A stretch of DNA of 63,985 nucleotides, counting the filler, from Psammoneis japonica (Eukaryota), in the NCBI GenBank assembly GCA_008632985.1. It is 3 parts of 3 records of this genome, joined end to end, with 100 filler letters (N's around TTAATTAATTAA, not from the genome) between each part and the next. Parts side by side here need not be neighbours in the genome. Positions count along the whole stretch, not along the records: positions 27,721 to 55,223 come from QPGO01000412.1; 2 more parts are not named here. One strand, 5' to 3'. The translations under genes were made by a program, and so were the position numbers. Positions 9,891-61,661 of the stretch are shown here, piece by piece. Within the stretch, counting starts at the first letter, position 1, and the number at the start of each line of letters is the position of its first letter. The notes under the pieces were generated by a model. It made no database searches, had not been told where the DNA came from, and was given only the letters and a program-made list of their open reading frames with translations.

Positions 9891-9899
9891 GGAATTTTT

Positions 9900-15661: not shown

Positions 15662-15697
15662 TTGTGTGTGCACACCACAGAAGGCAACTAGTTCAAG

Positions 15698-20981: not shown

Positions 20982-21048
20982 ACTGTTTTCGGGGTTGTCT
21001 GATGTGCTGACAGCCTTTGGCGCAACAGCAATCTATTGAGAGTTGCCT

Positions 21049-21101
21049 GACATACAAAGCTCAATGATGTGAGCTTTCGCTTTCGCTTCATCAGTGTTGT
21101 C
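21049..21101 (-). ncRNA. Minimal type I hammerhead ribozyme (5' pLTR)
   Basis: Same as 17026-17078 with one change in loop III; lies just upstream of ORF1. Confidence 0.8.
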
Positions 21102-23212: not shown

Positions 23213-23342
23213 CTCTGATGCCCTTGACGAGGAGAATTGTCAGTTTGAAAAAATGATGCGCAGCAATTCTGAGGAATGACTTGCACCGCAAGAGGAGTCT
23301 TGCGCACTGCTGGACATCAGGAAGCCCGGAAAAAGGGCCAAG

Positions 23343-25737: not shown

Positions 25738-26050
25738 GATCTGCGCTGAAGATGTTGTCAGACCCCTTTCTGCTTTTGCCTTTGGATCAGTGGTGTGGGC
25801 TTGAAGAACTCACAGATGTTGGTCTCTGCTGGTGTCCGACTCATTGTGGTGGTGCAACTTGCAGTGAAGATTCTGTGAGAGTGGCCAAAAGCTGTTGAGT
25901 CGATCTGCACTGAAGATGTTGTCAGACCCCGTTCTGCTTTTGCCTTTGGATCAGCGGTGTGGGCACAAAGAATTCACAAGTGTCAGTGTCTGCTGGTGTC
26001 CGACTCATTGTGGTGGTGCAACTTGCAGTGAAGAGTCTGTGAGAGTGGAG
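25738..26050. repeat. Two imperfect ~163-bp tandem units
   Basis: gatctgc(g/a)ctgaagatgttgtcagacccc at 25738 and 25901. Confidence 0.75.
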
Positions 26051-27620
26051 GCAAAAAGCCATCAAATCTTTTGATGCACGCACCAAAGATTTGCAAGAAA
26101 GGAACACAAAATGCGACGTGTTCCAGCCGCACGTGAACCAAATCGTGCACAAAAACGACATTTGCGCGATTTTTGCGCGGTCCCTAACTTGCGATCGAAC
26201 TTTCACCACCAAAAGTGCAGATTTGTGCAAATGCAAATGTTTTGCAACACTGACAAGACTCATGTGAGTGTTGCAATGTCATTGTCATTGTGCCATCTAT
26301 GTTTTTCATTGCGTTGAAAGATTTGCAACACAATGGATGATTTTCGGCGAAAACATTGCCATCATTTGGATGTTGCCCAAATGTGTCTTTCTACGATGCC
26401 ACTTGGTGGGTTTTCTACCTGCAAAAAAATCTCAGCATAAATCCACTGACGTGCAATCAGTGTTGAGTCTGCTGAGGAAGTTTGTGATGCACATCCCATG
26501 AGGATTTGAGTGCCCCTCAAAAAACTGTTTAAATGTTCACACTCTAGAAGCCTGCAAAAGTCAATCCGTCCAAGCATTTTCATTGAAATGCTGTGTGCAC
26601 TAAAACATGCATAAATTGTGTTCAAAATCCGATTGTCGTTTTGTGCATCACCTGGGATGCATCATCCAGGACATCCAGGACATGAGTTAGCCAGGGCAGG
26701 GCTAGTTGGTCGCGCACGTTTGGGTTCGATGCAGCCATGCAACTGGCCACACCCTGCAGGAAAAGCTGTTGGTGGCGCGAGAGCTGAAGCAACAAAGCAA
26801 AGAACACGGCGTGGGTTAAAACGTTGTAAAATGACGCAACAAAAAGCAGCGAGAAGAAACCCAACTTGACCCATGAATGCAGCGCATGCATGTTGTCCAA
26901 CCACTTCAATGGCATCTTGCATTCCCAGCTTGTAGATGAGGGGACGGCGTTCGCGTTTCTCGCCATGGTGTTGTTGTGCGTTGTCATGTTGTTTGCACGC
27001 GAAGAACACGAGATCTGTTCATGCGACAGTGACTCTGTTTTGGCAACAGCAGATGTTTTGCTGTGCGCAATGTGAAGTCATTTTGAGAAGCGCTTCGGGG
27101 AAACTCTGTGCGGACCGTCAAATGGAATTTTTTTAATCCAGATTCCACAGTTCTTTCGGGGTGTTCTGTCAGACTTTTGAGTTGGCACATGTGTGTGTTG
27201 GAGGCACGAGCAAATTCAATGATGTGTGACAGCCTCAGAGACCTGCACAAATTTGTGTTCCATGCAGACCACGCAGATTGTGCACGGGCAGAAAATCCAC
27301 CGCCTGTCAACTCATCAGCAGCAATTCTGCGCATGCTCCACTTACACCTCACACACGCACACACGCCTGCACAGTCGAAGACCCTGTCCAAACTGGGTCA
27401 TGCGACGCATGATCACACCTGACGTCATAAAGCCCAAAATTAGCCTGTTCAAAAAAATTGGTGGTCATCAGCCCCATGCATGATGCAATTTTAGGCCGTG
27501 CGATTTTTCCAGAGGAACAGTTTTCTCACGATGACACTGTTGGGGTCGACACATGAAACGACCCAGAAGCAGCTTTTTTGATGCAATCAAAGCACTTGTG
27601 GCTGCATCCTGTCCAAGACA

Positions 27621-27720
27621 NNNNNNNNNNNNNNNNNNNNNNNNNNNNNNNNNNNNNNNNNNNNTTAATTAATTAANNNNNNNNNNNNNNNNNNNNNNNN
27701 NNNNNNNNNNNNNNNNNNNN
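27621..27720. other. Artificial contig linker
   Basis: N-run + TTAATTAATTAA (stops in six frames) + N-run, repeated at 55224-55323. Confidence 0.93.
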
Positions 27721-27880
27721 ACCCACCATGGCGCTGCGCGAGGAACCTTCCGATTCACCCGACGCCGATGCCCCGTCTCATGGCAAAGATGATGAATGCG
27801 AACATGTTTTCACAAATGGATTGGGGATCACCGATGAGAACGAAAAGGCAAAACTCCGTGTCTAAAGCTTTGCCAATGAG

Positions 27881-30658
27881 TTGATGAAATTTCTTCAACT
27901 CCCACACCTTGGTCATTTGGTTGCACACAACAAAATTTTGCCACATGTCCCAGAAAAAAACAACAACCCGGAGCACTGGCTGTGTCGGCTCCATCGCGAT
28001 TGCGACACTCAGGAAAGGCACATGTCTTTTATGAACAATTTTTTGGCCTTGTCTCACTGCGAGACCACCAAGGATGACAACCCCCTCACCCATCCCGTTT
28101 TCGTGAAGAACCTCTTCGCCGAGAAAGGAAACGACTGGGAAGCTTTCATGGCCAATCAAATGACAACCGTCGAGAGGATTCAGTTGCACTCCAATCACGT
28201 TGACCAAAAGCTCGTGGCCACTGTCAAATGTCGTCGGCGCATTGACCCCGCCGATGATTCAGGAACGAGTGAACGTGCCCGTGATCGTTGCAAGGCAATG
28301 TGGCAAGCCCGACTTCGTGATTGGGCGTTGCACCACAAGAAAAAGGGGCTGGGCAGTGTGTTCCCATCCATCACTTGTGAAGCAAAGAAACACAAAGCCA
28401 CAGCCTCTCTCTGTTCCGATCAGGCCACCCCATCCAAGAGATCGACGCAGGAAACGCCGGTTCTTTCTTCCGACCCCCTGGAAGGGTTGCTCATGTTCGA
28501 GGAGCATCTGGCCAAGTCGCGCGAGGTTTGGCGGAAAAAAAAAGCCCAAGCACTTGTGTTGCCGCCTTTGCCCGACAATTTTGAAGAGGATGAACTTAAA
28601 CTCCGGTTCCCTGATTCATGCCCGCTGGCCAGCCCTGCAGACGTCAAGAGACACCACTCCCACCTTTCCATTTTGGAGAAAACCCCACCCATGGGAAGCC
28701 TGCCGCCCAACGCAGTGCGTCACATTCTCCTCCACACCACCGCTGATTGCTGCCTCGTTGATGATCTGCGCCAGTGCCATCACGGCTTCTACAATGGGTC
28801 TTTGCCCAGCGATCCGATGAAGGAGCCAGCAGTCACCACCACGTGCTCCACGGAAGCTTCGTCTCACTTGACGGACAAGGTTTCTTTTCTCAGGTTTTCC
28901 AACCCGATTTTTCAAAAACACTTTGGTCCTGTGCGGGCGAACATCCCGTCCCTTGTTAGAGCTGTTCTGCAGCATGGCAGCCCTGGCAAAGACAGGGATG
29001 GCCGCGGCAGCAAGATGCGTTGCCGCATCGAATTTGGTTGTTCCGGACAGAATTGCGTTGAGGCTCTCCCCGAAGAAGCGGAGGTTGGACCAGTCAGCAA
29101 ACCCGGTGCCACGCACGGGATGGATCTGTGGTCCAAGCTCCCCGAAGTTGTCCAACGAATGACAGCGGAGCTTCTCGACGCCATGCAAAGATGCGAGGAC
29201 GAGACAGAGGTCGCTGGTTTCCAAAACCAACGCCCTTTCAACGACGAAGCTCGTGACAGCCAATGTGCAGCTCAGCTCAGGGCTGCAATTGGCGCCTTTG
29301 TTTTTAGACGAGAAGACGTCACCCTGCAGTGCAAGTGTTTGTCTTTGCAAGCAGCAAAGCACAACCAAGGACCCAATTTGTGTGATCCGTCATTGCAGGA
29401 TGCAAATGATGACGGCGCACACAATGCTCCCGACCACCCAGCCGAGCCTCCGTCGTTGCAGGACGGGAATGAAGGAGAATCACCAACGTCAGCCGACGAC
29501 ACAGCCGAGCCACCTCTTGCTGACGAGAACGTCAATGATGACCGAAATGCACGTTCCCAGGACACACTGGGTCATGAAGACTCTGAAAATTGCACCAAAA
29601 AGGGCTGCTCAAAGACCAGCACCTTTTGCGCCAACATTGCTGACATTCGTGGACATGTGTGGTCCTTCAAGGCTGTCACCAATGGCAAAGGTAAAATCGG
29701 CAGATACATGGACTCCAAGTGCGACCACAAATGTCTAAAAGATCGAGTGGGAATGCACCTTTCCTGTCTTGATGCTTCATGCCAAGCTCAGATGATGCTG
29801 CACAAGGGTCCATGCCGTCCGTCAGAAGGCAAGCTCACACACAAAAACTTGATCGAATTCTTTCTAGATCGCCACTGTGAATTCATTGAAGAAAACATTG
29901 GGAGGGAGTCACGCAATGGTGACTCAGTCAAGCCACCCGTGGTGATGGCGCGTCGCATTGTTCATCCGTTCGCCATCGTGAGAGACTTCTTCCTCTCTCT
30001 TGCGGCGACTGCCATCTTTGGTCTGCTCCCCCACATCGGTGTCAGCAAAGCCATTCACTTGGCAATCATGGCGGGTTGCAAGACCGGTCACTTGCGATTT
30101 TGCCACATTCTCAGTGACATGCACGCGGTTGTCTCGGCACAAGACCCCATTCTCCACTGTCATCAAGAGGCGATGGCCAAGTTTGGAAGCATTGCTGGCG
30201 ATAGAAACAATGCTGGGCTTTCGTCTCCTGGCGTTGATTTCAAAAAGATCTTCATCAGCAAGTGCGGCAAGCGTTTGAGCTCTGTGATGGATGACATTGA
30301 ATGCGGGGTGCGTGAAGCCACATCTTGGATCAATGGCAATGTTGGAACCGAAGCTTTCAATCATGAATCTGTCGAAGCCAAATTCCAAGACATTGCCAGG
30401 AAATGGGAAGGAAAAGGCGCCGATTGTGCCGAGTTCCGATTCATGATCACTGCACAAATTTGCGTGCCAATTGGATTGGGTGTGAAGCCACACCCGGATC
30501 TTTGCAACCTTGTTTATCCTGTGTCGACCTCAGGCGCTGCGAAACAGATGCGCGTCATGGGGACACCCAAAGGCGCCCGCCCTGCCATCATGAGACGTCT
30601 GACAAACGATTTTGGTCTTCAAAAGTGTGGGTTGAATGGTGCCGAGGGATTGATGTGA
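27881..30658 (+). pseudogene. Large unknown ORF (925 aa), TpA-mutated
   Basis: Long frame nearly devoid of Tyr with excess Cys/His; contains HEDSEN (HxDxxN); no family securely recognised. Confidence 0.5.
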
Positions 30659-44700: not shown

Positions 44701-47671
44701 TGGAGCAATCCAATCACATGGGTCAAGATCAATGGAGGCGACCCCATTTGATGACAGACTCTCAGTGTCTTGGATTCCAGAGAGCCCATGCTGCCATCCA
44801 TTGCGAAATGAAATCTCCGATTCAGCGCATGACACTAACTGAGCCGGTCTCAATGATGCGCGATGCTCTCATCGTAGCCCCTTGTGGCTCGGGGAAGACT
44901 GGCACAATTGCCGCATCAAGCACGCATGCAAGGTTCAGCCATCTTTCAAGGCTGGGCAGAGAGGGCATGCAGCAATGCTTCGAACAGCACCAAGTGGACT
45001 CTGATGTTTTGGATGACCCCGCCGTGCAAGATTTTCTGGAACACTGTGCGACTGACGAATTCCCACCTCCTCCCCACGGTTTTGCCCTTTTGTGTTGTCC
45101 CTCATCGTGCCGCGATGGATGACACAATCTCCAATTTAAACAAAATGCAGTTTGTCACAGCCACTGGTTGGCGTGCTGCGGATGAAATGGAGGCCTTGCT
45201 GCAGCGTTCCGCATTCGCTGGTGATTTAAACTCGGAAAGCGTGGCAGGTTTCGACGTCCTGGTTCCAACAGTGGCGAAGGCTTGCTCCGACGAAGCGCGT
45301 CGATTTGTCGAAGATTGTTGCCGCGCAAAAGTGCTTTGCGCTGTTGTCACGGATGAACCACACATGTTTGTGATGGAGTTGGAGCACATGACATGCCTTG
45401 TCACATTCGTCAACCTCATGTCCAGATTCTCGCACGTGCGCCACCCGGGTGCCAAGGTTTCATCTTAGCGGCAGCAGCCCTGCCTGCTTGTCCACGAGCA
45501 TCGCGACAGTGACAGGATCCTCCTTTGGGAGCGCACCACCAACATGGTTGAACAGTTGTACGATCGGCCACTCTCGCTGCACGGGGCACGACGATCCCGA
45601 AGAGATTCTCGCGGAATGTGCTCAGAAGAGAGGCATTTGGCGACCCAGTGACACCGTCCCATCAAATGTCGCACATGCTGTCTGCAAGGTTCCATCCACC
45701 AATGACCACCGGCATGCTGAGTGCGCCCTGGCACGGTTGAAGCCTTTGCTTGCACAAAAGAACGACTCTGGGTGCCAACCAGACAAGATCCTCATTGTCT
45801 GCAAAACAAAAAACTTGGCACGTCGCGTTCACCTGGTTTTCGGTTCATCCTCTGTCATGCTGCTCGGCAGGGACAGAGACACCCCCGATGACCAGATGCA
45901 GGTCTTTCAAGAGAAATGGATCAATGGCAGCGTGCAGGTTGGTGTCGGCACATCAGTTCTTGCCCAGTCCATCAACCAGGGGAGGTGCAACCTCGTTGTT
46001 TGCCTGGACATGTTGCACAACGCTGTGCTCTGCATGCAGGCATCCGCTCGTGGCGGGCACCGCGGCCAGCCCTCGCTTAGCTTGTTTCTCTGCCGAGAGC
46101 AACAACACAGGCGATGCCTGTCGCCGAAGCCTTTTGACTTCAACGAGCTGCGCATGAGCGGCGTTGACATCGACGACCCCTCATTGAGCCATTCTCTTGG
46201 CACTGAGTCGCTGAGTGGCTTCATCAAAGCCGACGTTTCCCAACACATTTGCAGACGTGTCCACCTCAAGAGAGAGATGGACAAGGCTTTTGACAAATCG
46301 GACGCACATGTGACCAGATTTGAATCTTGTGCAGATCGCGACTGGTGCTGCAATCTTTGTTCTGCCAAGGTGGTTGATGTCATGTCTGTGATGGGTTTTC
46401 ATGGTTACGAAGACCAAGATGCAGACACAATGGATGTTGAATCCGATCCCTTCTTGCCCTGCACAGCCACCCCCATCGCCCTCGATGATGTTGCGTCACT
46501 TGACGGCGATGACGCAAGCACGACGGAGGTGGCACCAAGTCCCTTCTCTCCATCCACCGCCTCTTCCGATGACAGATCATCACCCCCTGATGAATGTCCG
46601 CCAGCCGTCACTCCTCATGATCACTTTTTGACTGCCAACGGGGCTGACTTTGAGGCCGAATTGTGCAATCTTGTTGACTCCGCATCGACAAACAACTCTC
46701 TCCTTGCACCTGACACTGCCAACACAGATGGCTTGCCAGGAGGGGAGGAAACGGCAGCCATGGCTGTTGCTTTGTCCGAATCAAACGGCTCAAACTCTCC
46801 TGGCAATTGTTTTTCCAAGTTGCCTGGCACCAATTTCCCCAGGGGCCGATCCCGTTCTCGGGTTGTTTCAAAAATCAAGCGGCGACAAAAGCCCGATCTT
46901 TTTACCCAGATGCCACAAGAAACCCAGCCCAGGACTCGTTCCTGCAGCCGCTCGAGGGATCGCACAGATCGTGCGATGAGACAAGTTCCGTTGTTTTCCA
47001 CCCGTGGCAACGCGCCTTCCAACAGAGCTGCGGCAGATCCCGCTGTTGCACGAGACACTTTTCCCAAACACAGCTGCCCCGTGCGCGCATTTGTCACCGG
47101 ATCTGACAGACGGCTGCTCCACAGCTGTCCCTGGCACTTTCAAATGGGCCTTCCTCCAGTTCCACGCCATCGAGGGCTGCTTGCAGAGAATCCCTTTGGC
47201 AGCCCCGAGTGCCGGGTTTCCTTCTGCAAGGCACTCAGAGGATGCACAGCCAAATCATTCTGTTTTAAGTGCGGCAACGATGGCATTTCCTGCTCATCGA
47301 AAGCCTTCGATATCAACACCTGCCGCTTTGGTGGTCTCCAAAGCGGCCAAGGTTGTTGTTGTTTTTGCGGCATTTGTCATGACGTGGGGGATGCACATGT
47401 GCGAGAAGCTTGTCTTGGAAATCGCCTTTGGGGGCTTGTTGTGTGGGCTTTCAGGAGTCCCTCCGGGCACAAGCTGGTTGCTGACAGGTGGATCCGCTCT
47501 GGAGCGAAAGGACTCCTTGGGTTTCCGTTTCCTGATCTGTGTTTGTTTTGTGACGTTTCGCCAGAAAAATGGAAGAAGGCTCTGAAGTTTCTCGTTGACA
47601 ATCGTCACGTTAACTGCTGTTTTTGGAGGTGCGTCCTCCATGTCCTCCACGAGCACTCCTTTCGCATTTGA
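41720..47671 (+). pseudogene. Telomere-linked-helicase-like (RecQ family) gene, ~2000 codons, frameshifted
   Basis: N-terminal LVCLGC...VKRH zinc-finger-like segment; motif I LIVAPCGSGKT, II VVTDEPH, III LSGS, IV ILIVCKTK, V VGTSVLAQSIN, VI QASARGGHRGQ; RecQ Zn module CRRVHL...CCNLC. Confidence 0.75.
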
Positions 47672-49112: not shown

Positions 49113-50522
49113 TTGGAATGTCGGTCGACAATGGAATGGATGCTCTTGCCGATGCGGCTGTTCTTGCATCGCAAGAACAGGACGAGGAAAGCCGGTCGTC
49201 ACAGGAGGAGAGCAACCAGAATCACGGGGGGGGGGGGAAATGATGTTTCACAGCAGGAAGAGGAAGATGTGGATTCCACAACAAGGGACAATGATGTTTC
49301 ACAGGAGAAGGAAGATGTGGATTCTACCCCAAGATCACCCAAATCCAACGCGGGTGACATTGAAAACATTCCCACCAAGCTCAGGGATTTCGTGACTCTC
49401 GTCAACGGTGACATGGCAAAGCAGGTGTGGGAAAACGTCTTTCGCCATGTTGGTTTGTACGATGTTGTTGACCCAAGCACAGAAACAAAATCACTGTGTA
49501 AATTGGCCAACTCTGGGCTCCGGCAAAATTCCGGGAAAAGGCACGTTTTGGTGCATCACAACCAGAAGGGATTGTCACCTGACATCTGCAAACTTCTCAG
49601 TGAATTTGAACAAGAAAACGAAGGCGACATCGTCGACTTGTTGAGCAACAAACACACCCACATTTTGGCAGTTTGCGCAGTTGACGGCGATCGTTGTGTC
49701 ATCGCGACCGATCTCGTGGCGGTGTTGTTGTGTCGGTGCATTCAAAAAGTGCCAGTCACAATTGTTGACTGCATTCGAGTCGACAAGAACGCCCAGGTCC
49801 ACAATTGTGGGATGTGCCCTTTCCTCATCGGCGTGGCTCAATCTGTCGGCTGCACAGTTGTTGGCACATGGGACACGATGCTGCATTGTCAAGTGAAGCT
49901 CAAGCAATGCCACTGTGAAACTCTGGGTTTCGAGGATGTCACAGATGAAATGAACGAGGAACCGTCTTTGGAAAGAGTGAGGCACCATTGGAATTGGGAG
50001 GATTTGATCAAAGAGGACGGAGAGAACACCCATGCACTCATGGTGAAACGCAAAGTCACCACATGCTCTGCAAGAATTGCGCTGCCCATCTCGCACACAG
50101 AGGATGCTTTTCAACACAATGCAAAATGGTGGCGGGACCGTGATGGGTTCTGGAGCAGCAACAAGGAACCATCAGAGCTGCACAGAGATTTGGTGGAAAA
50201 AGAGAAAGACGTGATTTGCAAATCCTCGGCAGTGATGGTTGGCAGGACGACACTGGACTCTTTCAAACACTCATGGGAAATGTTCATGGATGGTCGACAA
50301 TGGCTTGACATTGGGAGGTGCGTTTGCGAATCCTGCGAAATTTGCATTGGTGGAGTCGACAAGGCCAACAACATCAAGTCACATTTCGAGACAACGGCTT
50401 TGTTTGCAGCAAGCGTCCACTTCTCCTGTCGAACAAGTGAGTTGGCAAACGATGAAACATGGGATGGAGCGACGTGTCGATCAAGCGATTCGGAGTTGGC
50501 CCAAAGGGCCAAATGTGTGTGA
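49113..50522 (+). pseudogene. GNAT-acetyltransferase-like ORF
   Basis: TIVDCIRV...NCGMCPFLI...QCHCETLGF; reading C/H back to Y gives IVDYIRV and YYETLGF, resembling GNAT motifs A/B. Confidence 0.5.
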
Positions 50523-51575
50523 GGCCTTTTTGACTCGACCAAGGAGTCGGTTGCTGACAACCGGAAGTGTGTTCTCAACCCCAAGCATTGCCAGCGCAGT
50601 CGGAGCAATTCGGATGAAGACATGGAGAATGAAATGCCTTTGGGTGGCGACGGACCTCCCTGTCAGCATCTTTCAGCAATGTGCTTGAAGTGCAACACCT
50701 GCGACTTGTCCGTGCACATCGATTGCAACCAGGAAAGTCAACGAGGCCTTTCTCCAGCAGCAACTTTGTTTTCTGAGCTTGCAGGCCCTTGCTGCGACCA
50801 TGCAATGTGCGCTCGGGGCAAGCACCCCATTTGCGCTGCACAAAACAGAAGTGCAGTGCATGAGTTGCTGGTTGGTGCAGCACAAGAAGACAGAGAAACT
50901 CTGAAGGACCCAGAGAGACGCCGTGCTGCTTTGAACAAAAAGGATTTCTTTCAGCAGCCTTTGCAGCACATTGCCATTTGGTGCAAAGAAGCGGAAAAGC
51001 TGCGCTGGTGCAAGACAAACAGGTCAATTTGACAACACCGTTTCACACAGCTGGCCAAGGAGGCAGTGCTCCACCGAAAACTCTCTGCCAGTGGAAACAA
51101 GAGAAAAAAGAAGAAACCGAAACCCAAACAGGTGGATGGCGGCCTGGAGGTGGAAGAGTCTGATTCGGAGCCGGAAGATCAAGGTCTCCTCGTTTCACGA
51201 CGAAGAGTGTTGTCTGCTGTCGATGAGAAACACCAAGATCTTCATTTTGAAGCGAGGAAGTTGTGCGAGGATGCAAAAGACTTGGGACAGATGCGTCATC
51301 TTGAATGGGTTGATCCGGCGTCACGGCCGGATCACAGTGAGACACCAGGTGATGCCGTCCAGTGCGAAGGGCGAGTTTCATTTGGATGGTTTGAAGTTCT
51401 CAAACACGGCAGAACATTGGCTGACGATTGTTTTGGAGCGGACAATGACAAGATCATCGGAGGAGGGAGGGTGAACCTTGTTCGAAACGCCGTTGAGGAA
51501 GCCAAGCGGAGACCCAACACAAAAGTCTCTCTGAGCTGCAGAGAAAAGTGACAGATTGGCAACAGAGCTGATCAC

Positions 51576-52436
51576 GTGACAAACAAAGGTCATGTTCACA
51601 AAGTGAGGCGGCTGACAGATGGGGAGCGAGCCAAGGGGCTTGCAGCCAATGATGATTTTGAAGGTCCTGCGGGAACGCCAGAATTCATGGGGGTTGGCAC
51701 AAGGAACAAACCCCGCCATTGTGCCATGGAATGGGCAAGAGCCAATTTTCAGAAGCGATGTCCTGCAGTGTGCAAGGCCATGTGTGATTTGAAACCAGGC
51801 AAAGCATGGCGCAACCTGCCGGAGGGCAACGTGTCAGACAAAAGCGAGCTGGAATTTCCTGCATCGGGGCCACGAGTCAAACATCAACAAGGCGAGAAAG
51901 ACGCTTGTGTGCTCTCTAGCCTGGCCAGTGTCCTCAGTTGCATGGGAGACGAAAGGATGGAGCAACATGTTGTGAAGTGCAAGGAGCATTTTTGCAGGTT
52001 GGAGATCACCAACAACAAATGGCTGGAGTTCGCTGTCGGCATGTTGTTGGGGCAAAAGCAGAAAATGTGCCCTCCAACGGCCACATCAATGAAGTGGCAT
52101 GAATGCAAGAGGCGTCAGAAGATGGCAGCTGGCAAGAATGGATTCTTTGATTTGACCACACACATTGCAGATGACGTCGTTCTTTGTCGGTTGAAAAACA
52201 ACCATTGCACTGCTTTGCACAGTGGGTGGATCTTCGACTCCAATCATGAATTCACTCTTCCTGCCAAAGACATTCAGTGGTTGAATTGGTGTCTTGGGAA
52301 TGAAACGTTTGAAATGGGTGCACTGGTGGAAGACCCAAAACCAGCAGCGGAGGAAGCAGTGTTTTTCCAACTGCCGAAGGCTGTCCAAACAAGGTTGCGC
52401 AAACGCAAGAGGCCAGCTGATGTGTCTGCATTTTAG
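51576..52436 (+). pseudogene. Papain-fold cysteine peptidase-like domain (possibly the C-terminus of a long gene starting near 49113)
   Basis: QQGEKDACVLSSLASVL (Q..C), NNHCTAL (H), WIFDSN (D/N). Confidence 0.55.
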
Positions 52437-52489
52437 CTCTAAAAAGGGACGCTGGTGCGTTCATGCTTTTTTGTGGTTGGGGTCATGCG

Positions 52490-53612
52490 CTGGTCCGAAC
52501 ATGAGATTTCTAGAAAAAGAGTGAAGTGAGCCCCTGATTGTGTGAACCCAACCCACAAGTGCTGGCAGATGGCCTTGGCTGTCTCCTGTGGATGGCAGAG
52601 GACACTTTGACGACAAAGGTTGAGCACCAAAAGGCCCATCTTGTGCAGTTGAGGCCCCACCTCACTTTGTTTCCGCCAGGTTTGGACATGAAATTTCTAG
52701 AGTTAGAGCAAAACGAGCCCATGATTGGGTGAGCCCAGCCCAAAGGTGCCGGCAGATGGCCTTGGCTGTCTCCAGTGCGTGCCAAGGGACGCTTTGACAA
52801 CCAAGGTTGAGCACCACAAAGCCAATCTCGTGCAGTGACAGCCCACTTCAATTTGTTTTCACCAGGGCGGCTTGTGAAATTTCCAGATTCAGGTGAAATG
52901 AGCCCCTGATTTGGTGAACCCAACCCATGGCTGCTGGCAGATGACCATGGCTGTCTTTTGTGGGTGCCAGAGGACACTTTGACAACCAAGGTTGAGCGCA
53001 ACAAGGCCCATCTTGCGCAGTTGAGGCCCCACTTCACTTTGTTTCCACCAGGGCCAGACATGAGATTTCTAGAAAAAGAGTTGGATGAGCCCCTGATTGG
53101 GTGAACCCAACCCACAAGTGCCAGCAGAGGGCCTTGGCTGTCTCCAGTGGGTGCCAGGGGACACTTTGGGAGCCAAGGTTGAGTGTGACAAGGCCCTTCT
53201 TGTGCAGTTGAGGCCCCACTTCACTTTGTTTCCACCAGGGCCAGCAATGAGATTTCTAGAAAATGAGTGAAGTGAGCCCCTGATTGGGCGACCCCAACCC
53301 ACAAGTGCAGGCAGAGGGCCATGGCTGTCTCCAGTGGGTGCCAGGGGACACTTTGACAGCCAAGGATGATCGCAACAAGGCCCATCTTGTGCAGTTGAGG
53401 CACCACTTCACTTTGTTTCCACCAGGTTTGGACATGAAATTTCTAGAGTTAGAGTGAAATGAGCCCATGATTGGGTGAACCCAACCCGCAAGTGCAGGCA
53501 GAGGGCACTGGTTGTCTCCAGTGGGAGCCAGAGCACACTTTGACAACAAAGGTTGGGCACAACAAGGCCCGTCTTGTGCAGTTTCAGGCCCTGCTTCCCT
53601 TTGTTTCCGCCA
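52490..53612. repeat. Subtelomeric satellite, six ~187-bp units
   Basis: atga(g/a)atttctaga...gagccc at ~52501, 52688, 52875 (diverged), 53060, 53248, 53434. Confidence 0.92.
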
Positions 53613-53688
53613 GGGTCAGGGTTGGGGTCAGGGTTGGGGTTGGGGTTGGGGTTGGGGTTGGGGTCAGGGCCAGGGTTGGGGTTGGGGT
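53611..53688 (+). repeat. Degenerate internal telomeric tract
   Basis: Hexamers TTGGGG, TCAGGG, CCAGGG; no intact TTAGGG. Confidence 0.85.
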
Positions 53689-54016
53689 CGGTGTGCCGCA
53701 TCGTGGCATTCGAACTCGGATGCGAAACTCTGGCTCGCATGTTGCTGTTGAAAGGATGGAGTCACTCGAGGCAGGATGGTGGGAAACCTTGCAAGTTGGA
53801 GTGCAGAAGAGCACCCGCGATCGAACAAATGACATCGGTGGATTTTTCTGAATCAGAGACAGCAACAAACATGATGGCGAAGGTGCCCCTCTTGTTTGTT
53901 GTGTTGAACGATCCCAATCTGTTGGATCCCAGCTCCAGCGAGCCCTTGGTGAACCACGTTCAACCCCAAAGCTTTGCCAATGAGTTGATGAAATTTCTTC
54001 AACTCCCACACCTTGG

Positions 54017-54096
54017 TCAGGGTTGGGGTTGGGGTTGGGGCCAGGGTCAGGGTCAGGGTTGGGGCTGGGGTTGGGGTTCAGGGTTGGGGGTTGGGG
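54017..54096 (+). repeat. Second degenerate internal telomeric tract
   Basis: Hexamers TCAGGG, TTGGGG, CCAGGG, CTGGGG. Confidence 0.85.
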
Positions 54097-54658
54097 TGAC
54101 AGAAAATGAAGGCAAATGGCAAGAATTCAAACAACAACTCCTTGCTGCTGTCTAAACAGCAGATGAGTCTCCGCTCAGAGACCGCTGCAGGAGCCGAAAG
54201 ACGTGCAAGTCGGTGTGATCGGGCTGCTGTTGTTGTTCTTGTGAGCCTTGTGGCTCGAAAGCAAACCACATCGCACGTGAACGCGCGGAACTGGAGCACA
54301 CAAAACTGTGCGCGGCAAACTAAACAGCGCGCGACACTTCGCGCGCATCCAAATCCTGTTCAAATCCTGTCACTCCCCAGTTTGCTTGAGGAGCCACAGA
54401 AACAGATTCGACTTCGGATGGAATGAAGTTCCAGAACATGAGGGGGCGGAGAAGGTCCCAGATTTGGGAGTAACCCCAATGCTTGCTGAGAATGTCAGCA
54501 GGGTTGCGGGAGCCTTCGATGAAGTGGAGCTCAAGGCAACCAGAGGCAATTGCCTCACGCACACGGTGGAACGACAGTGCGGTGTGTCGCTTGTGTAACT
54601 TGGAGTGCGGGATGGTGGCACTGTCTACAACCGACTTGTTGTCACCGAACATGTAACT
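54097..54658 (-). mobile_element. 3' end of Ty1/Copia element: RNase H C-terminus, PPT and 276-bp 3' LTR (54097-54372), truncated by the telomere
   Basis: FGDNKSV...KRH...FHRVRE...NPADILSK (Copia RNase H); PPT ggggag; LTR with inverted termini TGACAG...CTGTCA. Confidence 0.88.
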
Positions 54659-54659
54659 N

Positions 54660-55223
54660 GTTAGGGTTAGGGTTAGGTTAGGGTTAGGGTTAGGGTTAGG
54701 GTTAGGTTAGGGTTAGGGTTAGGGTTAGGGTAGGGTTAGGGTTAGGGTTAGGGTTAGGGTTAGGGTTAGGTTAGGGTTAGGGTTAGGGTTAGGGTTAGGG
54801 TAGGGTTAGGGTTAGGGTTAGGTTAGGGTTAGGGTTAGGGTTAGGGTTAGGGTTAGGGTTAGGGTAGGGTTAGGGTTAGGGTTAGGGTTAGGGTTAGGGT
54901 TAGGGTTAGGGGTTAGGTTAGGGTTAGGGTTAGGGTTAGGTTAGGGTTAGGGTTAGGGTTAGGGTTAGGGTTAGGGTTAGGGTTAGGTTAGGGTTAGGGT
55001 TAGGTTAGGGTTAGGGTTAGGGTTAGGGTTAGGTTAGGGTTAGGGTTAGGGTTAGGGTTAGGGTTAGGGTTAGGGTTAGGGTTAGGTTAGTTAGGGTTAG
55101 GGTTAGGGTTAGGGTTAGGGTTAGGGTTAGGGTTAGGGTTAGGGTTAGGTTAGGGTTAGGGTTAGGGTTAGGGTTAGGGTTAGGGTTAGGGTTAGGGTTA
55201 GGGTTAGGGTTAGGTTAGGTTAG
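54660..55223 (+). repeat. Telomeric (TTAGGG)n array
   Basis: ~560 bp of TTAGGG with occasional 5-mer variants, ending at the contig linker. Confidence 0.98.
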
Positions 55224-55323
55224 NNNNNNNNNNNNNNNNNNNNNNNNNNNNNNNNNNNNNNNNNNNNTTAATTAATTAANNNNNNNNNNNNNNNNNNNNN
55301 NNNNNNNNNNNNNNNNNNNNNNN
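55224..55323. other. Artificial contig linker
   Basis: N-TTAATTAATTAA-N. Confidence 0.93.
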
Positions 55324-57720
55324 AACAGTCGCATGCTGCAGAAAATTCAACGCCCCAAAAATGAACCATGAACACCTTCCATTGTGAGCTTGATCTGCTG
55401 CACAAGAAGGTTGTTTCTTTCAAGATGCACATCTTTGGCTTTTTTCTCTCTCCCTGCTCTGTCTGTTTGTGTGCTGGCTCATCTCTTCTGTGCAATGCTC
55501 TGTTGTGTGTGTGTGCTCTCCTTTTGCCAGAAAAAAATGTGGCTGTGGGATGTGTGCTGCCACTTGCTTTGAATCATGTCTGCAAGTGCGTGCCATTCTT
55601 TCGCTGAAGTGCAGCATCCTGTTGGGCAAATTCAAATTGTTGTTGACACAAGTGCCCATCAACATGATCATGGCAGAGTCTGTTTTTCTCTGCGCTCTTG
55701 ATCACAGCATTGTGTGTGCCAAAGAAATGAAAACAAACAACAAGTGTCTGTGCCAAAGAAATGAAAACAAACAACAAATCTTCTTTGGCTCTCTTGATCT
55801 CAGTGTGCAAAGCTCTTGTTGGTTGAATTGCCGCTCAAAGTGTTGTCATCAATTGACAAGAGCTGGCACTCTTCAACATGGGTGTTTTTTCCTCTTGTGT
55901 GTCATGGCAAGCTCACCCCAAAGGGGTGGCTCAAGCAAAAGCTGCACTCAGCAACCACAGTGTTTTCTGCTAAAATCAACAGAGCTGCAGCCAAATCTGA
56001 TGCTGGGTGATCTGGCACAAATGTCAATTGTGTGGTGGTGCCTGAGGCCAATGACTGATGCCTCAAAAAACACATTTTGGGTCTCTTTGCATGTGTGCAA
56101 AATGTGTTTTTGACAACAACAATTGCTCTCTTTTTGTTGCAAACCTCCTCACAATGCATCATTGACAAATCTGCCACACCCACTCTCCCAGTTTCCGGTT
56201 TCCAGTGTTGCCCCATTTAAAATTGAGGCATTGCCCCAGACAAAAAATCAGCACTGCACAAGCACCAGATCACCCCAGCTGCTTTGTTGCCTGTTTCCTG
56301 TCACTGTTGTTGTGCGCCATTGTCATCATTGCTTGCAAAGTGAGTCACTTCGCCAGCTGCTTTGTGGCACCACACAAGAAGTTTTGCGCATCATCTGCAA
56401 GCTCTGCAAAATGACGTGGTCTTTCTGGGGCCTGCTGGAAATTTTGGTCACATGCATTGAAAAGGTCAACATGAGCAGCAAGCCACAAGAGCAGGACCTG
56501 GGTGCATTGTTGTGCTGTTTCTGAACTCTGAACATTTTTCTTTGGTTGTGCATTTTCCTCATGGCACCATTTTTGGAGATGCTTCCACACATTTCTGTGC
56601 ACAGCCAGCTGTTTTTGAATTAGACAGCCAACCAAGCAGCTGGCAACCACCCAAACAACCACAAAGTTTTCACTGCCACAAGCCTGGAATGCCTGGCACA
56701 TGACACTGGTGCTCCTCAACTCTGAAGCACAACCCCCTGGGTTGGCCAGCGCTCCTCAGCTCTGAAGCACCGCCTCCTGGGTTGGCTGCTGAGCTGGTCA
56801 AAGTCAAGAGATTAGAGCACAAAAGCAAAGCTGCCTCAAGGAGCAAGTGCACATGTGCTGGTCATCTGAGCACACTTGCTTGCACCATGAAAAAGCAAAA
56901 AGGCTGCTGAGTTCAGGAAAAGTGCACAGTTTCTCAGCAGTGTTGAGGTCACTCAGAGTCTCTCTTCATTTCAGACCTCCTGGCTGTGCTGCTTGCCTGC
57001 ATTTGCAGCAGCAGCAATGCCAAAAGACCCTCTGTCTCAGCTGCCAGCATTGGCTGCAGCCCATTAATCAGACCATGATGTGCTGCCTCCAGAGCCAGTG
57101 AAAGACTGTCTCTTTGGCACATCTGCCCCCCTGGCAAGACATTGGCGTGCGCTGCGCTTTGAGCGCAGCTGATTGTGAAAATTTGAGCCGAGAGAGAGAG
57201 AAGAGCAGTGTGCCTCATTTCTTTGAGGGGCTGTCTGATTTGTCTCTCTTCTGCTGCAGGCTTAATTTTCAACATGCACGGCAACAAATGGCGGCACTGC
57301 ACCCCTGCCAGGGCATGCAGCAACAGCGTGGCGCGACAGCCCCACATGGGAGAGAAAAGCCTCCACAGGGTTTGCAGTCACCAGCTCAACAATCAACTTG
57401 CAGAAGAATGGGTTTTCTTTCACAACAACTGCCCTTGTTTTTTTTTTCTGACAAGAGACAAAAGAGGTCACCTGCCGCCACAAAAGTCCCTTGTTTTGGC
57501 AAAAAAAGCTGCTGCAGTGCCCAGAAGCCGGTGCTGGAGAGAGCCCCTCCTCCATTTGACAACAACATCATGTGTGCAGTGCAGTGATGCAGGACAACCT
57601 TGACAATCATGAACGAGACCAGTTTTCTCATCAATGGGGAGAAACACTGGGCAGTTTCAATGCGATTGCCCGCCACTTTGACGTGAGCAACTTTCGACGA
57701 CTGGGGGTGTGACGAAAAAA
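55324..57720. repeat. Extremely decayed TE relic (TpA- and CpG-poor)
   Basis: TG/CA-saturated; no recognisable protein. Confidence 0.5.
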
Positions 57721-57760: not shown

Positions 57761-57842
57761 GACATCGTGCCGGAGTGGTAAACGGGATAGATTGCTAATC
57801 TATTGTGCTATGCACGCCAGAGTTCGAATCTCTGCGATGTCG
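57761..57842 (+). tRNA. tRNA-Ser(GCU)
   Basis: Acceptor stem GACATCG/CGATGTC, anticodon arm ATAGA-TTGCTAA-TCTAT, long variable arm GTGC-TAT-GCAC, T arm CAGAG-TTCGAAT-CTCTG, oligo-T terminator downstream. Confidence 0.95.
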
Positions 57843-60100: not shown

Positions 60101-61661
60101 TCATGCAGCAACATCATTAGCATGGGCGTTGCCAACAACATGGCTTTGTCGGTTGTCTTCTTCCCACAGTAAGCGTTCGAAAGTCTCCTCTGGGGAACGC
60201 AGCAACACGTCTTCACTCAAGTGCTTTGTCGCGGCATTCAAAATCAATTCAGAGATGGGAGGTTTGCCAGACAGCGAGACGCCCTCTCGCAAGTACTTCT
60301 TCGGAAGTGAAGCAATCTCATCCAATTCGATGCGATATCGCTTCGAGTTGGGTTCTCCAGCAAACAACTGACAAACCGCTTTGACAATGAATCGCCGGAT
60401 TTTTGCAGGATCCCATAGATTTTCTTCCTCATCGGCATGTCGACCGTATTCTTGAAGTATTTCTAGCCGATTCAAATGTCTGCAGGAGTCATCCTTGTAG
60501 AGTAGACGGTCCGCCATTGCAAAATTCCAAGGCTGAGCGGCAAACGAACGCCCGACCATTACCCCTAGCAAACCGGGACATTCGTCAAATTCCGTCTGAG
60601 CATCAGTCAAGCTACCGATACCACCATTGACCGAAAACGTAAGCTCTGGATAGTCTTGTACAAGTCGTCTGACTAGTTCGCGTTTCAGAGGTGGTATTTT
60701 TCGATTGTCCGCAGGCGAGAAAGATTTCTGAAGAACGGCAATACGTGCGTGCACAGAAAAGTCGGTCACGACATTGTTCGCCGCTACTCGTTCAATGAAG
60801 CTGCAAAGTTTGGAATACTCCATCTCAGGATCAATGCTGTCGTAAGCCTTTCGAGTGAAAGACTGGTCATTTGACGTTCCAATTCTACATTTGACCGTCA
60901 CTGGCAATTTCCCGCCGGTACCGTCATGTAAAGCAGAAGTGAGTTCTGCTACCAGATCTGGATCGTCCATCAGAGCAGCTCCAAAGCATCCTTTTCCGGC
61001 TACCTTTGGAGAAGGGCAGCCGCAGTTCAGGTTGATGGCGGTGTAGTCGCACCATCCTCGGTCAGTCATGTCCATCACAGTCTGGGCTGCTTCATACATT
61101 TGCTGAGGATCTGAACCACCTAATTGCAACACGGAAGCGCCCTCAAGCGGTTGTATTAGCCCTTGGCCAAGGTAACGCCTCATAAATTGATCATCATAGC
61201 CCTTTCGTGCTTGTTCTGGGGTTGCTGTTGGATTCTGGCTTATGAATTCGTCCTCTTTGTCACGACGCTCGTGAACCAAGGCATTTGCTGCAACCATCTC
61301 GGTATAGAGCAAGGTGCGGTTCGAAATGAGCCTTACCAAATGCCGAAAATGCCGGTCTGTGTACTCCATCATCTATTCATCAAAGGACATGCAAAAGAAG
61401 AAAGTGGAGTTACACAATGCGTGAGACGCATGAGACAAAAAAAGAAGAAAGTTAGAGCGAACATACCGGTGCGAGAGACAAGCGGCTTGCTTCCATCAGT
61501 TCTTTGTATTTTGTCTCCCTCGTGGCTGCATTGTCCTCACTGGACTCTGTCGATGTTGTGACCTGGTACAGGTTTCGCCGAGAAAGAGCTTTCCTTTGTG
61601 TAAGGGAAGCAAAAGCAGGTACACGGCCAGCCGCCGACCCTCTCATTTGCAAACCGTACAT
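60101..61661 (-). CDS. dusA: tRNA-dihydrouridine synthase, DusA-type; intron 61373-61466
   Basis: Spliced SLAP|MMEYTDRHFR, LLYTEM, QLGG, NLNCGCPS, VKCRIG, HAR, NGGI, GVMVGR; start codon uncertain (61661 or 61646). Confidence 0.9.

Follow-up and report, generated by a model that had tools for sequence, protein, structure and literature searches.

Internal telomeric tracts without TpA in a TpA-depleted subtelomere of Psammoneis japonica, a probable product of regional TA to TG/CA mutation

Dinucleotide mutators and variant telomere repeats

The closest described system is found in the chlorarachniophyte Bigelowiella natans (Rhizaria), where, according to the accessible parts of a recent preprint, TpA>TpG/CpA hypermutation has been measured directly in mutation-accumulation lines and targets integrated giant-virus and virophage DNA (Mettrop et al., bioRxiv 10.64898/2026.01.13.699255). 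The DNA of the diatom-like stramenopile Psammoneis japonica described here resembles that system, as portrayed in those parts, in the near-exclusive A>G or T>C change at TpA, which yields TpG or CpA depending on the strand. It is also similar in the kilobase-scale clustering, with TpA down and CpA plus TpG up, and in that normal genes are spared, and it may be similar in that transposon or foreign DNA is hit. The two cases differ in host, in depth and in targets. The TpA odds ratio (rho_TA) is 0.00-0.15 over tens of kilobases here, compared with the 0.45 given for the NCLDV region of B. natans in the accessible text. The affected DNA here comprises LTR retroelements, satellites, subtelomeric DNA and relic telomere arrays, and a scan of viral contigs with a helicase alignment found no viral relative. 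Furthermore, the process was measured live in B. natans, whereas here it is read from its sequence footprint alone. No word beginning with "telomer" or "diatom" occurs in the accessible main text of the preprint, and searches of the literature on TpA hypermutation in diatoms, algae and transposons yielded this preprint and papers on fungal RIP only, with no report from a diatom among them. The terms "degenerate," "interstitial," and "dinucleotide" are likewise absent from the accessible text of the Phaeodactylum telomere-to-telomere paper (PMC9266582).

RIP of ascomycetes also introduces dinucleotide-specific transitions into repeats and transposons, kills genes and leaves a signature behind. 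Its direction is the opposite, however, as RIP converts CpA/TpG to TpA and TpA is enriched, whereas here TpA is converted to TpG/CpA and is nearly gone. In contrast to RIP, no sign of a dependence on duplication or on the sexual cycle is seen. Hyperediting by adenosine deaminases, such as ADAR on double-stranded RNA, shares the A>G outcome and the preference for a 5′ T/U neighbor, and the accessible part of the B. natans preprint cites reports of ADAT2/3-type enzymes that work on DNA (bioRxiv 10.64898/2026.01.13.699255). Editing at the RNA level would leave its marks on a single strand of sequences copied back from RNA. In the DNA described here, both strand types follow each other within 80 bp, and the hits extend to satellites, to a unique spacer and to telomere relics, all of which points to a change made on the DNA in situ.

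A different kind of relative is seen in humans and other vertebrates, whose telomere variant repeats and interstitial telomeric sequences are degenerate hexamers derived from TTAGGG and lie proximal to the telomere (accessible portions of PMC6410037, PMC3919612, and PMC6393293). In these portions, TTGGGG and TCAGGG are prominent as well, and the repeats stem from internalised or old telomeric DNA. The tracts described here, unlike the human variants, stand apart from the terminal array, and the base of that array is canonical. In humans, the variants lie scattered among TTAGGG units, and transversion types such as TGAGGG belong to them, whereas the tracts here contain neither TTAGGG nor transversions, carry one hit per TpA and share their type of change with the flanking DNA.

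Two internal tracts and an intact terminal array

The window, that is, the whole analyzed stretch of 63,985 nucleotides, is composed of three contigs that are joined by linkers of the form N44-TTAATTAATTAA-N44 (27621-27720 and 55224-55323). The middle contig (QPGO01000412.1, 27721-55223) ends in a TTAGGG array, and all observations on the tracts concern this one chromosome end within the 64-kb window. The array (54660-55223) runs with its G-strand on the plus strand, 5′ to 3′, to the end of the contig and is unconverted. It is made up of 97 units (96.8 copies by TRF), of which 78 are perfect and 19 are length variants (TTAGG 13, TAGGG 3, TTAG 2, TTAGGGG 1). TTGGGG and TCAGGG do not occur, and base-substitution variants are absent even from the most proximal units. 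The initial annotation had read the ancestral state from an intact terminal array; the array is indeed there and free of substitutions, but it ends the middle contig rather than the window and is attached through a single N (54659), which joins it to a truncated retrotransposon. Beyond 54658, read contigs from three runs continue for another 60-67 letters at a depth of 24-27. The array is rich in homopolymer-length errors.

Two further arrays of hexamers lie 0.56-1.05 kb inside the terminal array, both with the G-rich strand on the plus strand like the array itself. The distance to the array is 971 bp from the end of tract 1 (53610-53689) and 564 bp from the end of tract 2 (54017-54096), with 327 and 562 bp of other DNA in between, and the hexamers of both tracts stand in register, each ending in GGG. 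When the 64 kb were scanned for at least three NNNGGG units, nothing came up besides these two tracts and the terminal array except five short matches attributable to chance. Counted generously, the tracts hold 25 units (TTGGGG 15, TCAGGG 7, CCAGGG 2, CTGGGG 1). A strict count, in which the first unit of each tract is assigned to the flank, leaves 23 and does not change the outcome: 11 units in tract 1 (53622-53687; TTGGGG 8, TCAGGG 2, CCAGGG 1) and 12 in tract 2 (54023-54096; TTGGGG 7, TCAGGG 3, CCAGGG 1, CTGGGG 1), plus an extra T and an extra G in the latter.

That no internal unit keeps its TA, as initially stated, is borne out in full (0/25), and TTAGGG, TGAGGG, and TCGGGG are all missing among the 25 hexamers, each of which lies one or two transitions away from TTAGGG. 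The substitutions are far from evenly spread over the six positions of the repeat, with 3 at T1, 9 at T2, 16 at A3, and none at the 75 G positions (G4-6). The TpA accounts for 25 of the 28 substitutions and is destroyed by A3>G in 16 units and by T2>C in 9, never by both and never by neither. Under the assumption of independent sites, exactly one TpA hit in every unit has a probability of 2.0e-7 for 25 units and of 3.2e-6 for the strict 23. The remaining three substitutions are T1>C changes and constitute the few double hits that had been noted (CCAGGG twice, CTGGGG once). As the TG-type and CA-type units are interleaved, the claim that both strands are hit stands too, and CpG decay is correctly excluded as the cause because the repeat contains no CpG. 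Converted units make up 25/25 of the internal but 0/97 of the terminal units (Fisher 1.5e-26), and both tracts sit inside a 703-bp interval without any TA (53450-54153). The order of units differs between the tracts, and therefore they are not copies of each other.

Upstream of tract 1 lies a 187-bp subtelomeric satellite (52495-53619, plus strand; TRF period 187, 6.0 copies), whose six copies, delimited by alignment, hold 7 TA versus 60.6 expected. The satellite was dropped as a mutation reporter, as its alignment offers 2 informative columns only. Its last copy runs to CCAGGGTCAG at the junction with tract 1, and the first unit of that tract in the generous count is better read as a continuation of the satellite. 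Between the tracts lies spacer A (53690-54016, plus strand), a single-copy sequence of 327 bp with no TA versus 19.5 expected. Its last 49 bp and the first 3 bp of tract 2 form a 52-bp block (53968-54019) that is 100% identical to 27864-27915 and includes the TCA preceding the tract 2 units. Tract 2 begins exactly where this identity stops, after GGTCA. Both proximal junctions thus show microhomology to the repeat, CCAGGGTCAG|GG in tract 1 and GGTCA|GGG in tract 2, which is what a healed break would be expected to leave. Together with the shared orientation and the position just inside the array, these flanks argue, as far as sequence can tell, for the telomeric derivation that was originally proposed. 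The 52-bp block is also part of a 924-aa ORF, for which a search found no homologue.

Tract 2 is followed by the 3′ end of a very high-copy LTR retrotransposon of Ty1/copia type (54097-54658, minus strand), which has its LTR end, TGACAG, at 54097, contains the C terminus of pol (54323-54658), and is cut off within pol at 54658. The 112-aa pol fragment has 1586 relatives, many with RVT_2 (PF07727), and is 62-72% identical to full-length polyproteins. The summed word depth of the element reaches 1e5-7.6e5, and the sequence before 54097 varies among its copies. The element is partly converted, with 6 TA left versus 30.8 expected, and 2 of 4 CTAA sites survive in the LTR/pol fragment.

The tracts are real DNA. 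The check was made against contigs (not reads) of four runs. All four runs come from one sample, which may be the one that the assembly was made from, and their contigs reproduce spacer A and the junction of tract 2 with the LTR without a difference, while tract 1 and the last satellite copy lie outside their cover as repeats are skipped. A 339-letter contig spans 53699-53997 in spacer A, where the word depth is 20, and a 79-letter contig crosses the tract 2/LTR junction (54044-54122). Word depth over the bins of tract 2 is 794-1120 versus 20 in unique DNA (∼40-55×), and the variant-hexamer words are therefore multicopy, the only hint that such tracts may recur at other chromosome ends. An artefact, be it faulty assembly, an error of the sequencing chemistry at TA sites, or contigs from another organism, would be the least probable source of the pattern: three concatenated contigs, the N at the telomere junction and the homopolymer-length errors of the array could invite suspicion, but the contigs from the four runs match exactly at single-copy depth, depleted and normal DNA adjoin on the same contigs, and we know of no sequencing artefact that would replace TA by a fixed mix of TG and CA.

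Regional TpA depletion and its direction

The loss of TpA extends far beyond the tracts. Over ∼45 kb of the window, the TpA odds ratio is 0.00-0.15 with a TG/CA odds ratio of 1.3-1.6, while the AT odds ratio remains at 0.7-1.0, and the loss is therefore specific to TA and not a general loss of A/T. TA density amounts to 6.4/kb in depleted regions (269 in 42,277 bp) versus 37.2/kb in normal ones (631 in 16,985 bp). By dinucleotide odds ratios, the depleted domain covers all nontelomeric DNA of the middle contig (27721-54658), and in 27721-52494, 106 TA stand against an expectation of 1403 (rho 0.08). Over the full domain, 119 TA remain. A stretch of 2418 bp (49499-51917) is the longest in this contig without any TA, and the stop-to-stop ORFs of the contig contain ∼0% Tyr. 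Among the residual TA sites of the contig, TTAG/CTAA is the commonest context (25/113), and RTAY contexts account for 6. Judged by these survivors, RTAY would be converted fastest and YTAR slowest. Much of the middle contig is without recognizable origin in Pfam and homologue searches.

In the first contig, a depleted block (9001-12500) ends less than 500 bp from the normal SHQ1 gene (12822-14429). Its 500-bp bins from 9001 to 12001 show rho_TA values of 0.17, 0.03, 0.03, 0.10, 0.06, 0.05, and 0.14, compared with 0.47-0.72 in SHQ1. On the other side of the gene, depleted repeats and retroelement remains, including an rve integrase ORF (23280-24887), occupy 14501-27620 with rho_TA of 0.03-0.38 in most 500-bp bins. 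Two bins stand out with higher values, 0.64 at 19001 and 1.18 at 24501-25000, the latter belonging to a TA-rich younger piece at ∼24500-25300 that interrupts the depleted DNA. The third contig starts with a block depleted in both TpA and CpG (55324-57500), in which 55324-57000 has 4 TA versus 117 expected and a CpG rho of 0.12-0.13, and continues with normal genes, a tRNA (57761-57842) and Dus (60101-61372). Rfam finds this one tRNA and no telomerase RNA in the whole window. In the housekeeping genes, rho_TA is 0.4-0.8, and SHQ1, Dus, and the region at 1-8 kb taken together range over 0.3-0.8. Depleted DNA passes into normal DNA within one and the same contig, on both flanks of SHQ1 and ahead of the tRNA and Dus, and the borders, at ∼8.5-9, 12.5, 14.5, and 57.5 kb, are sharp. 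The depleted DNA includes copia pol, the rve integrase, satellites, and a dead helicase of the 2000-aa type. When 16 long ORFs from this DNA were searched against Pfam with E values of up to 0.5 allowed, Helicase_C and rve were the only families found.

The direction of the change can be read independently of the tracts. In a trio of paralogues, the outgroup copy (24917-25293) has 25 TA, of which 18 and 21 are converted in the sister copies at 15281 and 21707. Rooting the trio on sites where the outgroup and one sister keep TA gives three TA>TG/CA changes and none in reverse. Such copy-specific changes, three between duplicates that are 98% identical, are the sole hint that the mutation rate may be raised at present. 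Across six repeat pairs (5054 aligned positions), 39 of the 60 adjacent double differences are CA<->TG, and every other type occurs at most twice. These 39 sites, together with 17 sites of TA versus TG/CA, fit ∼0.9 conversion per TA per copy, whereas CpG decay (64 sites of CG versus TG/CA) predicts only ∼2 CA<->TG alternations in these pairs. In the LTR family, all 21 variable positions are transitions, and at 12 of them other copies carry TA, at 10-97% of depth, where the window has TG/CA. The dead helicase ORF (45392-47668) encodes 0.1% Tyr versus 0.5-4.4% in 25 relatives; in the 24 alignment columns with Tyr in at least one of four relatives, the window has Cys nine times, His twice, and Tyr never. 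The TA-rich outgroup copy could in principle itself be a RIP-like product; against such an origin stand the rooted sites, only three in number, the LTR-family consensus, and the Tyr data. The polarity from TA to TG/CA, which had been deduced from the telomere repeats, is thereby confirmed on other sequences.

Origin of the converted tracts

The sequence shows the pattern of conversion, how it is confined to TpA, the direction in which it runs, how far it extends through the region, and that housekeeping genes are spared. Very probably, all this is due to telomere relics that became stranded and were rewritten by a regional, in situ TA>TG/CA mutation of silent, repeat-rich DNA. For both tracts, TTAGGG is taken as the ancestral state from the terminal array. 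The sequence of events would start with a break in the 187-bp satellite and a later one in low-copy sequence, each healed by telomerase with TTAGGG. The arrays would then be stranded inside as distal DNA arrives, first spacer A and then the copia-type retrotransposon, and would share the fate of the silent, repeat-rich DNA around them. Here, a process acting in situ on DNA would convert the A:T pair of 5′-TA-3′ to G:C on either strand, resulting in TA>TG or TA>CA. The process would end at a site once its TA is lost, which would explain why each unit carries exactly one TpA change and no G is altered. The terminal array would be spared most simply through telomerase resynthesis from its template, or through recent age. 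Alternatively, the tracts could have been copied into place already converted.

The preferred chemistry, which has been proposed for B. natans, is that an enzyme deaminates adenine to hypoxanthine at TpA on one strand or the other, and this would leave the observed footprint. A TET/JBP-type enzyme that oxidizes the paired thymine would leave the same one. Chromatin, small RNA, or repeat recognition may provide the targeting signal. As TTAG/CTAA is the commonest surviving TA context, one would not automatically expect all 23-25 units to be converted. For this, the arrays must be older, be targeted preferentially, or have been homogenized internally.

Ordinary decay of the kind seen in human proximal telomeres and interstitial telomeric sequences, in which random mutations of stranded repeats are spread by slippage or unequal exchange and TTAGGG is lost by drift, is an unlikely explanation, although it has more in its favor than the other alternatives. 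TTGGGG and TCAGGG also lead in human variant-repeat work, as far as the accessible sources go, and the run of five TTGGGG in tract 1 could be slippage. For comparison, 86 metagenome loci that carry an 18-mer common to both tracts were collected. None is related to the window, BLAST matches to it being repeats only, and most have a G+C content of 60-70%. TTGGGG and TCAGGG are the leading variants in these loci, too. Yet the comparator loci keep TA in 125 of 316 nonascertained units (40%) versus 0/19 here (Fisher 1.2e-4), and they carry transversion variants (TTCGGG 27, TGAGGG 6), of which the tracts have none. Flanks with a rho_TA of at most 0.25 occur at only 2 of the 86 loci, L026 and L086, both in unrelated DNA. 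These two loci consist of low-complexity or bacterial-looking DNA. Decay also leaves unexplained the exactly-one-hit rule, the unaltered G positions, the TA-free spacer, and the 45 kb of TpA-depleted flank, and two tracts that differ in unit order are not mutual copies.

Selection has a slim chance of being the cause. Either internal TTAGGG would be purged for its binding of telomere proteins or its breakage, a view that does not account for the TA loss in the spacer and the 45-kb flank, or tract 2 would be coding and its in-frame TAG removed. The latter is attractive in that the ATG frame of the 52-bp block would read TTAGGG in tract 2 as a GGT-TAG stop, from which TGG and CAG are the two transition escapes, while CCAGGG and CTGGGG would be synonymous GGT>GGC changes. 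Tract 2 would accordingly read as Gly-Trp/Gly-Gln repeats, and an ORF (53553-54155) spans both tracts. In tract 1, however, TTAGGG is no stop in the frame of this ORF and conversion is equally complete, the 924-aa ORF with the 52-bp block is without homologue, and long ORFs are a by-product of TAA/TAG loss.

It is slightly less probable again that the tracts were born variant, by telomerase misincorporation, from a former or alternative template, or by recombination-based maintenance. The high copy number of the variant-hexamer words would suit such an origin, and human telomerase and ALT do make variant repeats (accessible part of PMC3919612). But none of the 97 terminal units, proximal ones included, is base-substituted, two interleaved variant types are not obtainable from a single template, and the same TA loss affects nontelomeric flanks.

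If regional in situ mutation is indeed responsible, a broader reading can be offered tentatively, on odds that fall somewhat short of even: diatom-like algae would have a genome-defence mutator that is RIP-like but chemically opposite, acts on duplex DNA in place, and prefers stranded telomere arrays as targets. Such a mutator would erase TpA from silenced DNA almost to completion. That even the otherwise resistant TTAG context was fully converted would imply a preference for telomere-like arrays, by which stranded telomere seeds would in effect be decommissioned. So far reported only in the 2026 chlorarachniophyte preprint, it would now extend to a stramenopile and, with the only other case in Rhizaria, would therefore either date far back in the SAR supergroup or have arisen more than once. 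Whether RIP-like defence is widespread outside fungi becomes a directly testable question. Relic telomere arrays would serve as natural reporters of polarity, strand symmetry, and the rule of one hit per site. Telomere repeats are among the few sequences for which the original state is known without an outgroup, and a stranded array is therefore a built-in reporter, which records the TA to TG/CA direction, hits on either strand, and a single hit per site, and does so on chromosomal DNA rather than on an RNA copy.

The depletion also carries a warning for annotation, as dead DNA loses TAA and TAG stops and gains long false ORFs without tyrosine. Because both stops are lost throughout the domain, long ORFs appear in all six frames, and the depleted DNA of the window contains 91 ORFs of at least 150 aa, most of them with 0% Tyr.

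Unit content of two internal telomere tracts

The middle contig (contig B) ends in a (TTAGGG)n array (54660-55223) whose G-rich strand runs 5′ to 3′ toward the contig end. The array lies mid-window because the window consists of three concatenated contigs, which are joined by filler linkers at 27621-27720 and 55224-55323 (N44-TTAATTAATTAA-N44, a six-frame stop spacer). Perfect TTAGGG makes up 78 of its 97 units; the other 19 are T- or G-run length variants (TTAGG 13, TAGGG 3, TTAG 2, TTAGGGG 1), and base-substitution variants occur in 0/97. A single N (54659) separates the array from a minus-strand LTR retrotransposon, of which a truncated 3′ end is present (54097-54658). Further inward follow relic tract 2 (54017-54096), the unique 327-bp spacer A (53690-54016), relic tract 1 (53610-53689), and six copies of a 187-bp satellite (52495-53619). 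Both tracts run in the same direction as the terminal array.

Read in register and counted generously, the two tracts comprise 25 hexamers (TTGGGG 15, TCAGGG 7, CCAGGG 2, CTGGGG 1), and tract 2 additionally contains one extra T and one extra G. TTAGGG, TCGGGG, and transversion variants are absent from these 25 units. Relative to TTAGGG, T1 is substituted three times, T2 nine times, and A3 16 times, with 0/75 changes at G positions. At the start of tract 1, CCAGGGTCAG extends the consensus of the satellite (CCAGGGCCAG), and in both tracts the opening unit is better assigned to the flank, which leaves a strict set of 23 units with the same picture. Converted units amount to 25/25 internally versus 0/97 in the terminal array (Fisher 1.5e-26), and a whole-window scan for runs of at least three NNNGGG units found nothing comparable outside the tracts and array. 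The statement of the initial annotation that no tract unit keeps TA and that most are the A>G or T>C product at that step holds under either count.

Every one of the 25 units carries A3>G or T2>C, none carries both, and none carries neither. If the two changes were independent at their observed frequencies of 0.64 and 0.36, exactly one change would be expected in 54% of units, which gives a probability of 2.0e-7 for 25 units and 3.2e-6 for the strict 23. One change per unit is predicted for a process that recognizes the TA step, because the first hit destroys its target. Because TA reads the same on both strands, TA>TG and TA>CA are one event on opposite strands. TG-type and CA-type units are interleaved in both tracts; hence, both strands were hit within tens of bases, as had been proposed from the sequence. 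The process may spill over, more weakly, to the neighboring A, as hinted by the T1>C changes of three tract units and by a double change in the LTR, TAA>TGG, at 54293-54294.

For comparison, metagenome contigs were scanned for an 18-mer common to both tracts, yielding 86 loci that belong nearly all to unrelated organisms with 60-70% G+C. The TpA odds ratio (rho_TA) of the flanks is ≤0.25 in only two of them (L026 and L086, both unrelated DNA). With the three ascertained units per locus left out, TA is kept in 125/316 comparator units (40%) versus 0/19 in the window tracts (Fisher 1.2e-4), and transversion types are present (TTCGGG 27, TGAGGG 6). Elsewhere, decay thus commonly yields TTGGGG and TCAGGG, but not a complete conversion confined to TpA.

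Regional TpA loss and its direction

The tracts are not special in their surroundings, as the whole neighborhood has lost TpA. In nearly all 500-bp bins at 9-12.5, 14.5-24.5, 25-54.6, and 55.3-57.5 kb, rho_TA is 0.00-0.15 and the ratios of the product dinucleotides TG/CA are 1.3-1.6, while AT is not depleted. Values of 0.3-0.8 are found at 1-8 kb, in the SHQ1 gene (12822-14429), and at 57.5-64 kb (tRNA and Dus gene). Depleted regions (42,277 bp) contain 269 TA (6.4 per kb) and normal regions (16,985 bp) 631 (37.2 per kb). Contig B at 27721-52494 has 106 TA where 1403 are expected, and spacer A has 0 where 19.5 are expected. Both tracts lie inside a 703-bp TA-free interval; the longest such interval in the window is 2418 bp. 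The SHQ1 ORF is uninterrupted, and its named best relatives are all from diatoms (Fragilaria crotonensis 49%, Seminavis robusta 43%, and others), with further matches up to 56%. For the Dus protein, the closest Atlas clusters are from Bacillariophyta and Oomycota. On these two genes, the source of the window is a diatom-like stramenopile and not Bigelowiella. The tRNA gene (57761-57842, plus strand, Rfam, 58.5 bits) is located just beyond the depleted/normal border of the third contig.

Depleted DNA harbors long ORFs in all six frames with almost no tyrosine, because TAA and TAG disappear. They are by-products of this loss and not genes, and gene callers would over-predict genes in such DNA. 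Overlapping ORFs of 150-550 aa with 0% Tyr occur on both strands, for example, at 36.4-40 kb.

The direction TA to TG/CA, which the initial annotation had read from the telomere repeat, is upheld by an element trio, repeat pairs, an LTR family, and the tyrosine content of a helicase. The trio consists of 381-bp elements: a TA-rich copy (24917-25293) with 25 TA sites and two sisters that are 98% identical, in which 18 and 21 of the outgroup's 25 sites are now TG or CA. At three sites TA is shared by the outgroup and one sister with TG/CA in the other; the reverse occurs at none. The TA-rich stretch 24500-25300 (rho 1.18) contains alternating-TA runs and aligns to 15281-15661 and 21707-22087, which read TG/CA; it is a young or untouched copy beside converted ones. 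Two CGTACG sites keep TA in both converted copies. The blocks 15013-17413 and 20983-23387, 98% identical, flank an assembly gap (N run 18745-18878) in the order A-B ... B-A. Among the few positions at which they differ are copy-specific TA>TG/CA changes, which suggests that the process continued after the duplication. A 15-G run (CCTGGGGGGGGGGGGGGG) at 21688-21705 inside the duplicated block could reflect an assembly or homopolymer artefact.

Across six repeat pairs (5054 aligned positions, 223 differences), CA<->TG accounts for 39 of 60 adjacent double differences, and every other type for at most two. In addition, there are 64 CG-versus-TG/CA and 17 TA-versus-TG/CA sites. Ancestral CpG could also produce CA<->TG, but with 64 CG sites and CpG mostly intact only ~2 cases would be expected. 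By our own arithmetic, the 39 alternations and 17 TA sites fit a conversion of ~0.9 per TA per copy, in agreement with the residual rho of ~0.08. Several TpA-poor blocks show strong CpG depletion as well (11001-12000 and 52001-57000, rho_CG 0.12-0.47). Together with the 64 CG differences, this suggests cytosine methylation and deamination on the same DNA, also feeding the TG/CA excess.

The LTR element beside tract 2 is extremely abundant in reads, and at 21 positions the window copy differs from others, always by a transition. At 12/21 of these, TA in the other copies (shares 10-97% of depth) corresponds to TG/CA in the window copy, and at 4/21 the others have CG (CpG decay); the window keeps TA at 1/21, and 4/21 are other changes. 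The helicase ORF (45392-47668, plus strand), located in the subtelomeric TpA-depleted contig B, is the dead C-terminal half of a ~1900-2100 aa protein whose relatives carry DEAD and Helicase_C domains. It contains 0.1% Tyr versus 0.5-4.4% in 25 relatives from a library of 1.8 billion proteins. In 24 alignment columns with Tyr in at least one of four relatives, the window has Cys in nine, His in two, and Tyr in none, as expected for TAY>TGY/CAY. Relatives were not found in viral contigs, and the helicase could be telomere-linked or element-borne. The telomere tracts are the cleanest line of evidence on polarity, because the telomerase template fixes what their ancestral unit was.

The 113 TA left in 27721-53600 survive best in YTAR (CTAA/TTAG 25, CTAG 11, TTAA 10; total 46) and least in RTAY (ATAT 1, ATAC/GTAT 3, GTAC 2; total 6), a pattern implying that the mutator would favor a pyrimidine 3′ of the targeted A. 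Retention of TTAG, the telomeric context, is 6% to ~40% depending on the assumed ancestral composition, so that the probability of no TTAG survivor in 25 lies between ~0.2 and 1e-4. Full tract conversion does not sit easily with this survival and could mean that the tracts are older than most TTAG sites of contig B, that arrays are preferentially hit, or that slippage removed the last canonical units.

Known systems and alternative explanations

A literature search for TpA-targeted hypermutation found only one preprint, on Bigelowiella natans (bioRxiv 10.64898/2026.01.13.699255). There, A>G/T>C accounts for 230/231 mutations across two integrated viral regions, the GC-biased mutations are all at TpA, the genome has 124 TpA-poor, CpA+TpG-rich clusters enriched in transposon domains, and an ADAT2-like deaminase is the proposed agent. 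Words beginning with “telomer” or “diatom” do not occur in its main text. The window agrees with B. natans in chemistry and targeting but differs in its diatom-like stramenopile lineage, its depth of depletion, and the kinds of DNA affected. Mutation was followed in real time in B. natans, whereas the evidence from the window is its sequence pattern. Relic telomere arrays offer a built-in reporter for this very recently described kind of hypermutation.

The tracts are, with good confidence, former TTAGGG arrays converted in place by a regional TpA process, and the initial reading of TpA-directed conversion of internalized telomere repeats is supported; our confidence in any particular enzyme or targeting signal is much lower. 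Editing of RNA copies is an unlikely origin of the changes, as the affected DNA includes a unique spacer, a satellite, and telomere relics, and TG-type and CA-type changes are mixed at short range. Human-type telomere variant repeats do not fit with 25 units that include neither TTAGGG nor a transversion and with a canonical base of the array. CpG decay fails for the tracts, as initially argued, since the repeat has no CpG, and so does fungal RIP, which acts in the opposite direction.

Proposed history and copy number of the locus

At the start of each tract, an unrelated sequence breaks off at a repeat-like site. The tracts would represent two chromosome ends healed one after the other and later internalized. 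Tract 2 is directly abutted by an intact LTR end (TGACAG), and other element copies are flanked differently here; the element itself therefore terminates at this point. The fragment of pol at 54323-54658 corresponds to the C-terminus of Ty1/copia polyproteins and has 1586 relatives, many with RVT_2, with 62-72% identity to full-length ones. The retrotransposon is cut in pol, where the present telomere begins. Conversion appears to fall off toward the tip, judging from the few sites in the read table: tract 2 is fully converted, the LTR part has one TA left (10 sites with TA in other copies), the pol part has five (two such sites), and the terminal array has 0 converted units.

Contigs of four runs from one sample match 53699-53997 and 54044-54122 with 0 differences at single-copy depth, although these runs are possibly the assembly's own source and not an independent confirmation. 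Contigs from three of the four reach 60-67 letters past 54658. Word depth over tract 2 is 794-1120 versus 20 for unique DNA; the genome therefore contains many copies of the converted hexamer words. This fits similar relics at other ends and allows copying of already converted tracts.

A 52-bp block (53968-54019) is 100% identical to 27864-27915 and ends with the TCA that precedes tract 2. It has sharp borders on both sides, no TA, and a read depth of ~3.6x single copy. At 27864-27915 it holds the ATG and first 10 codons of a 924-aa ORF (27884-30655), for which a homologue search found no match. The block may mark where a low-copy element ends.
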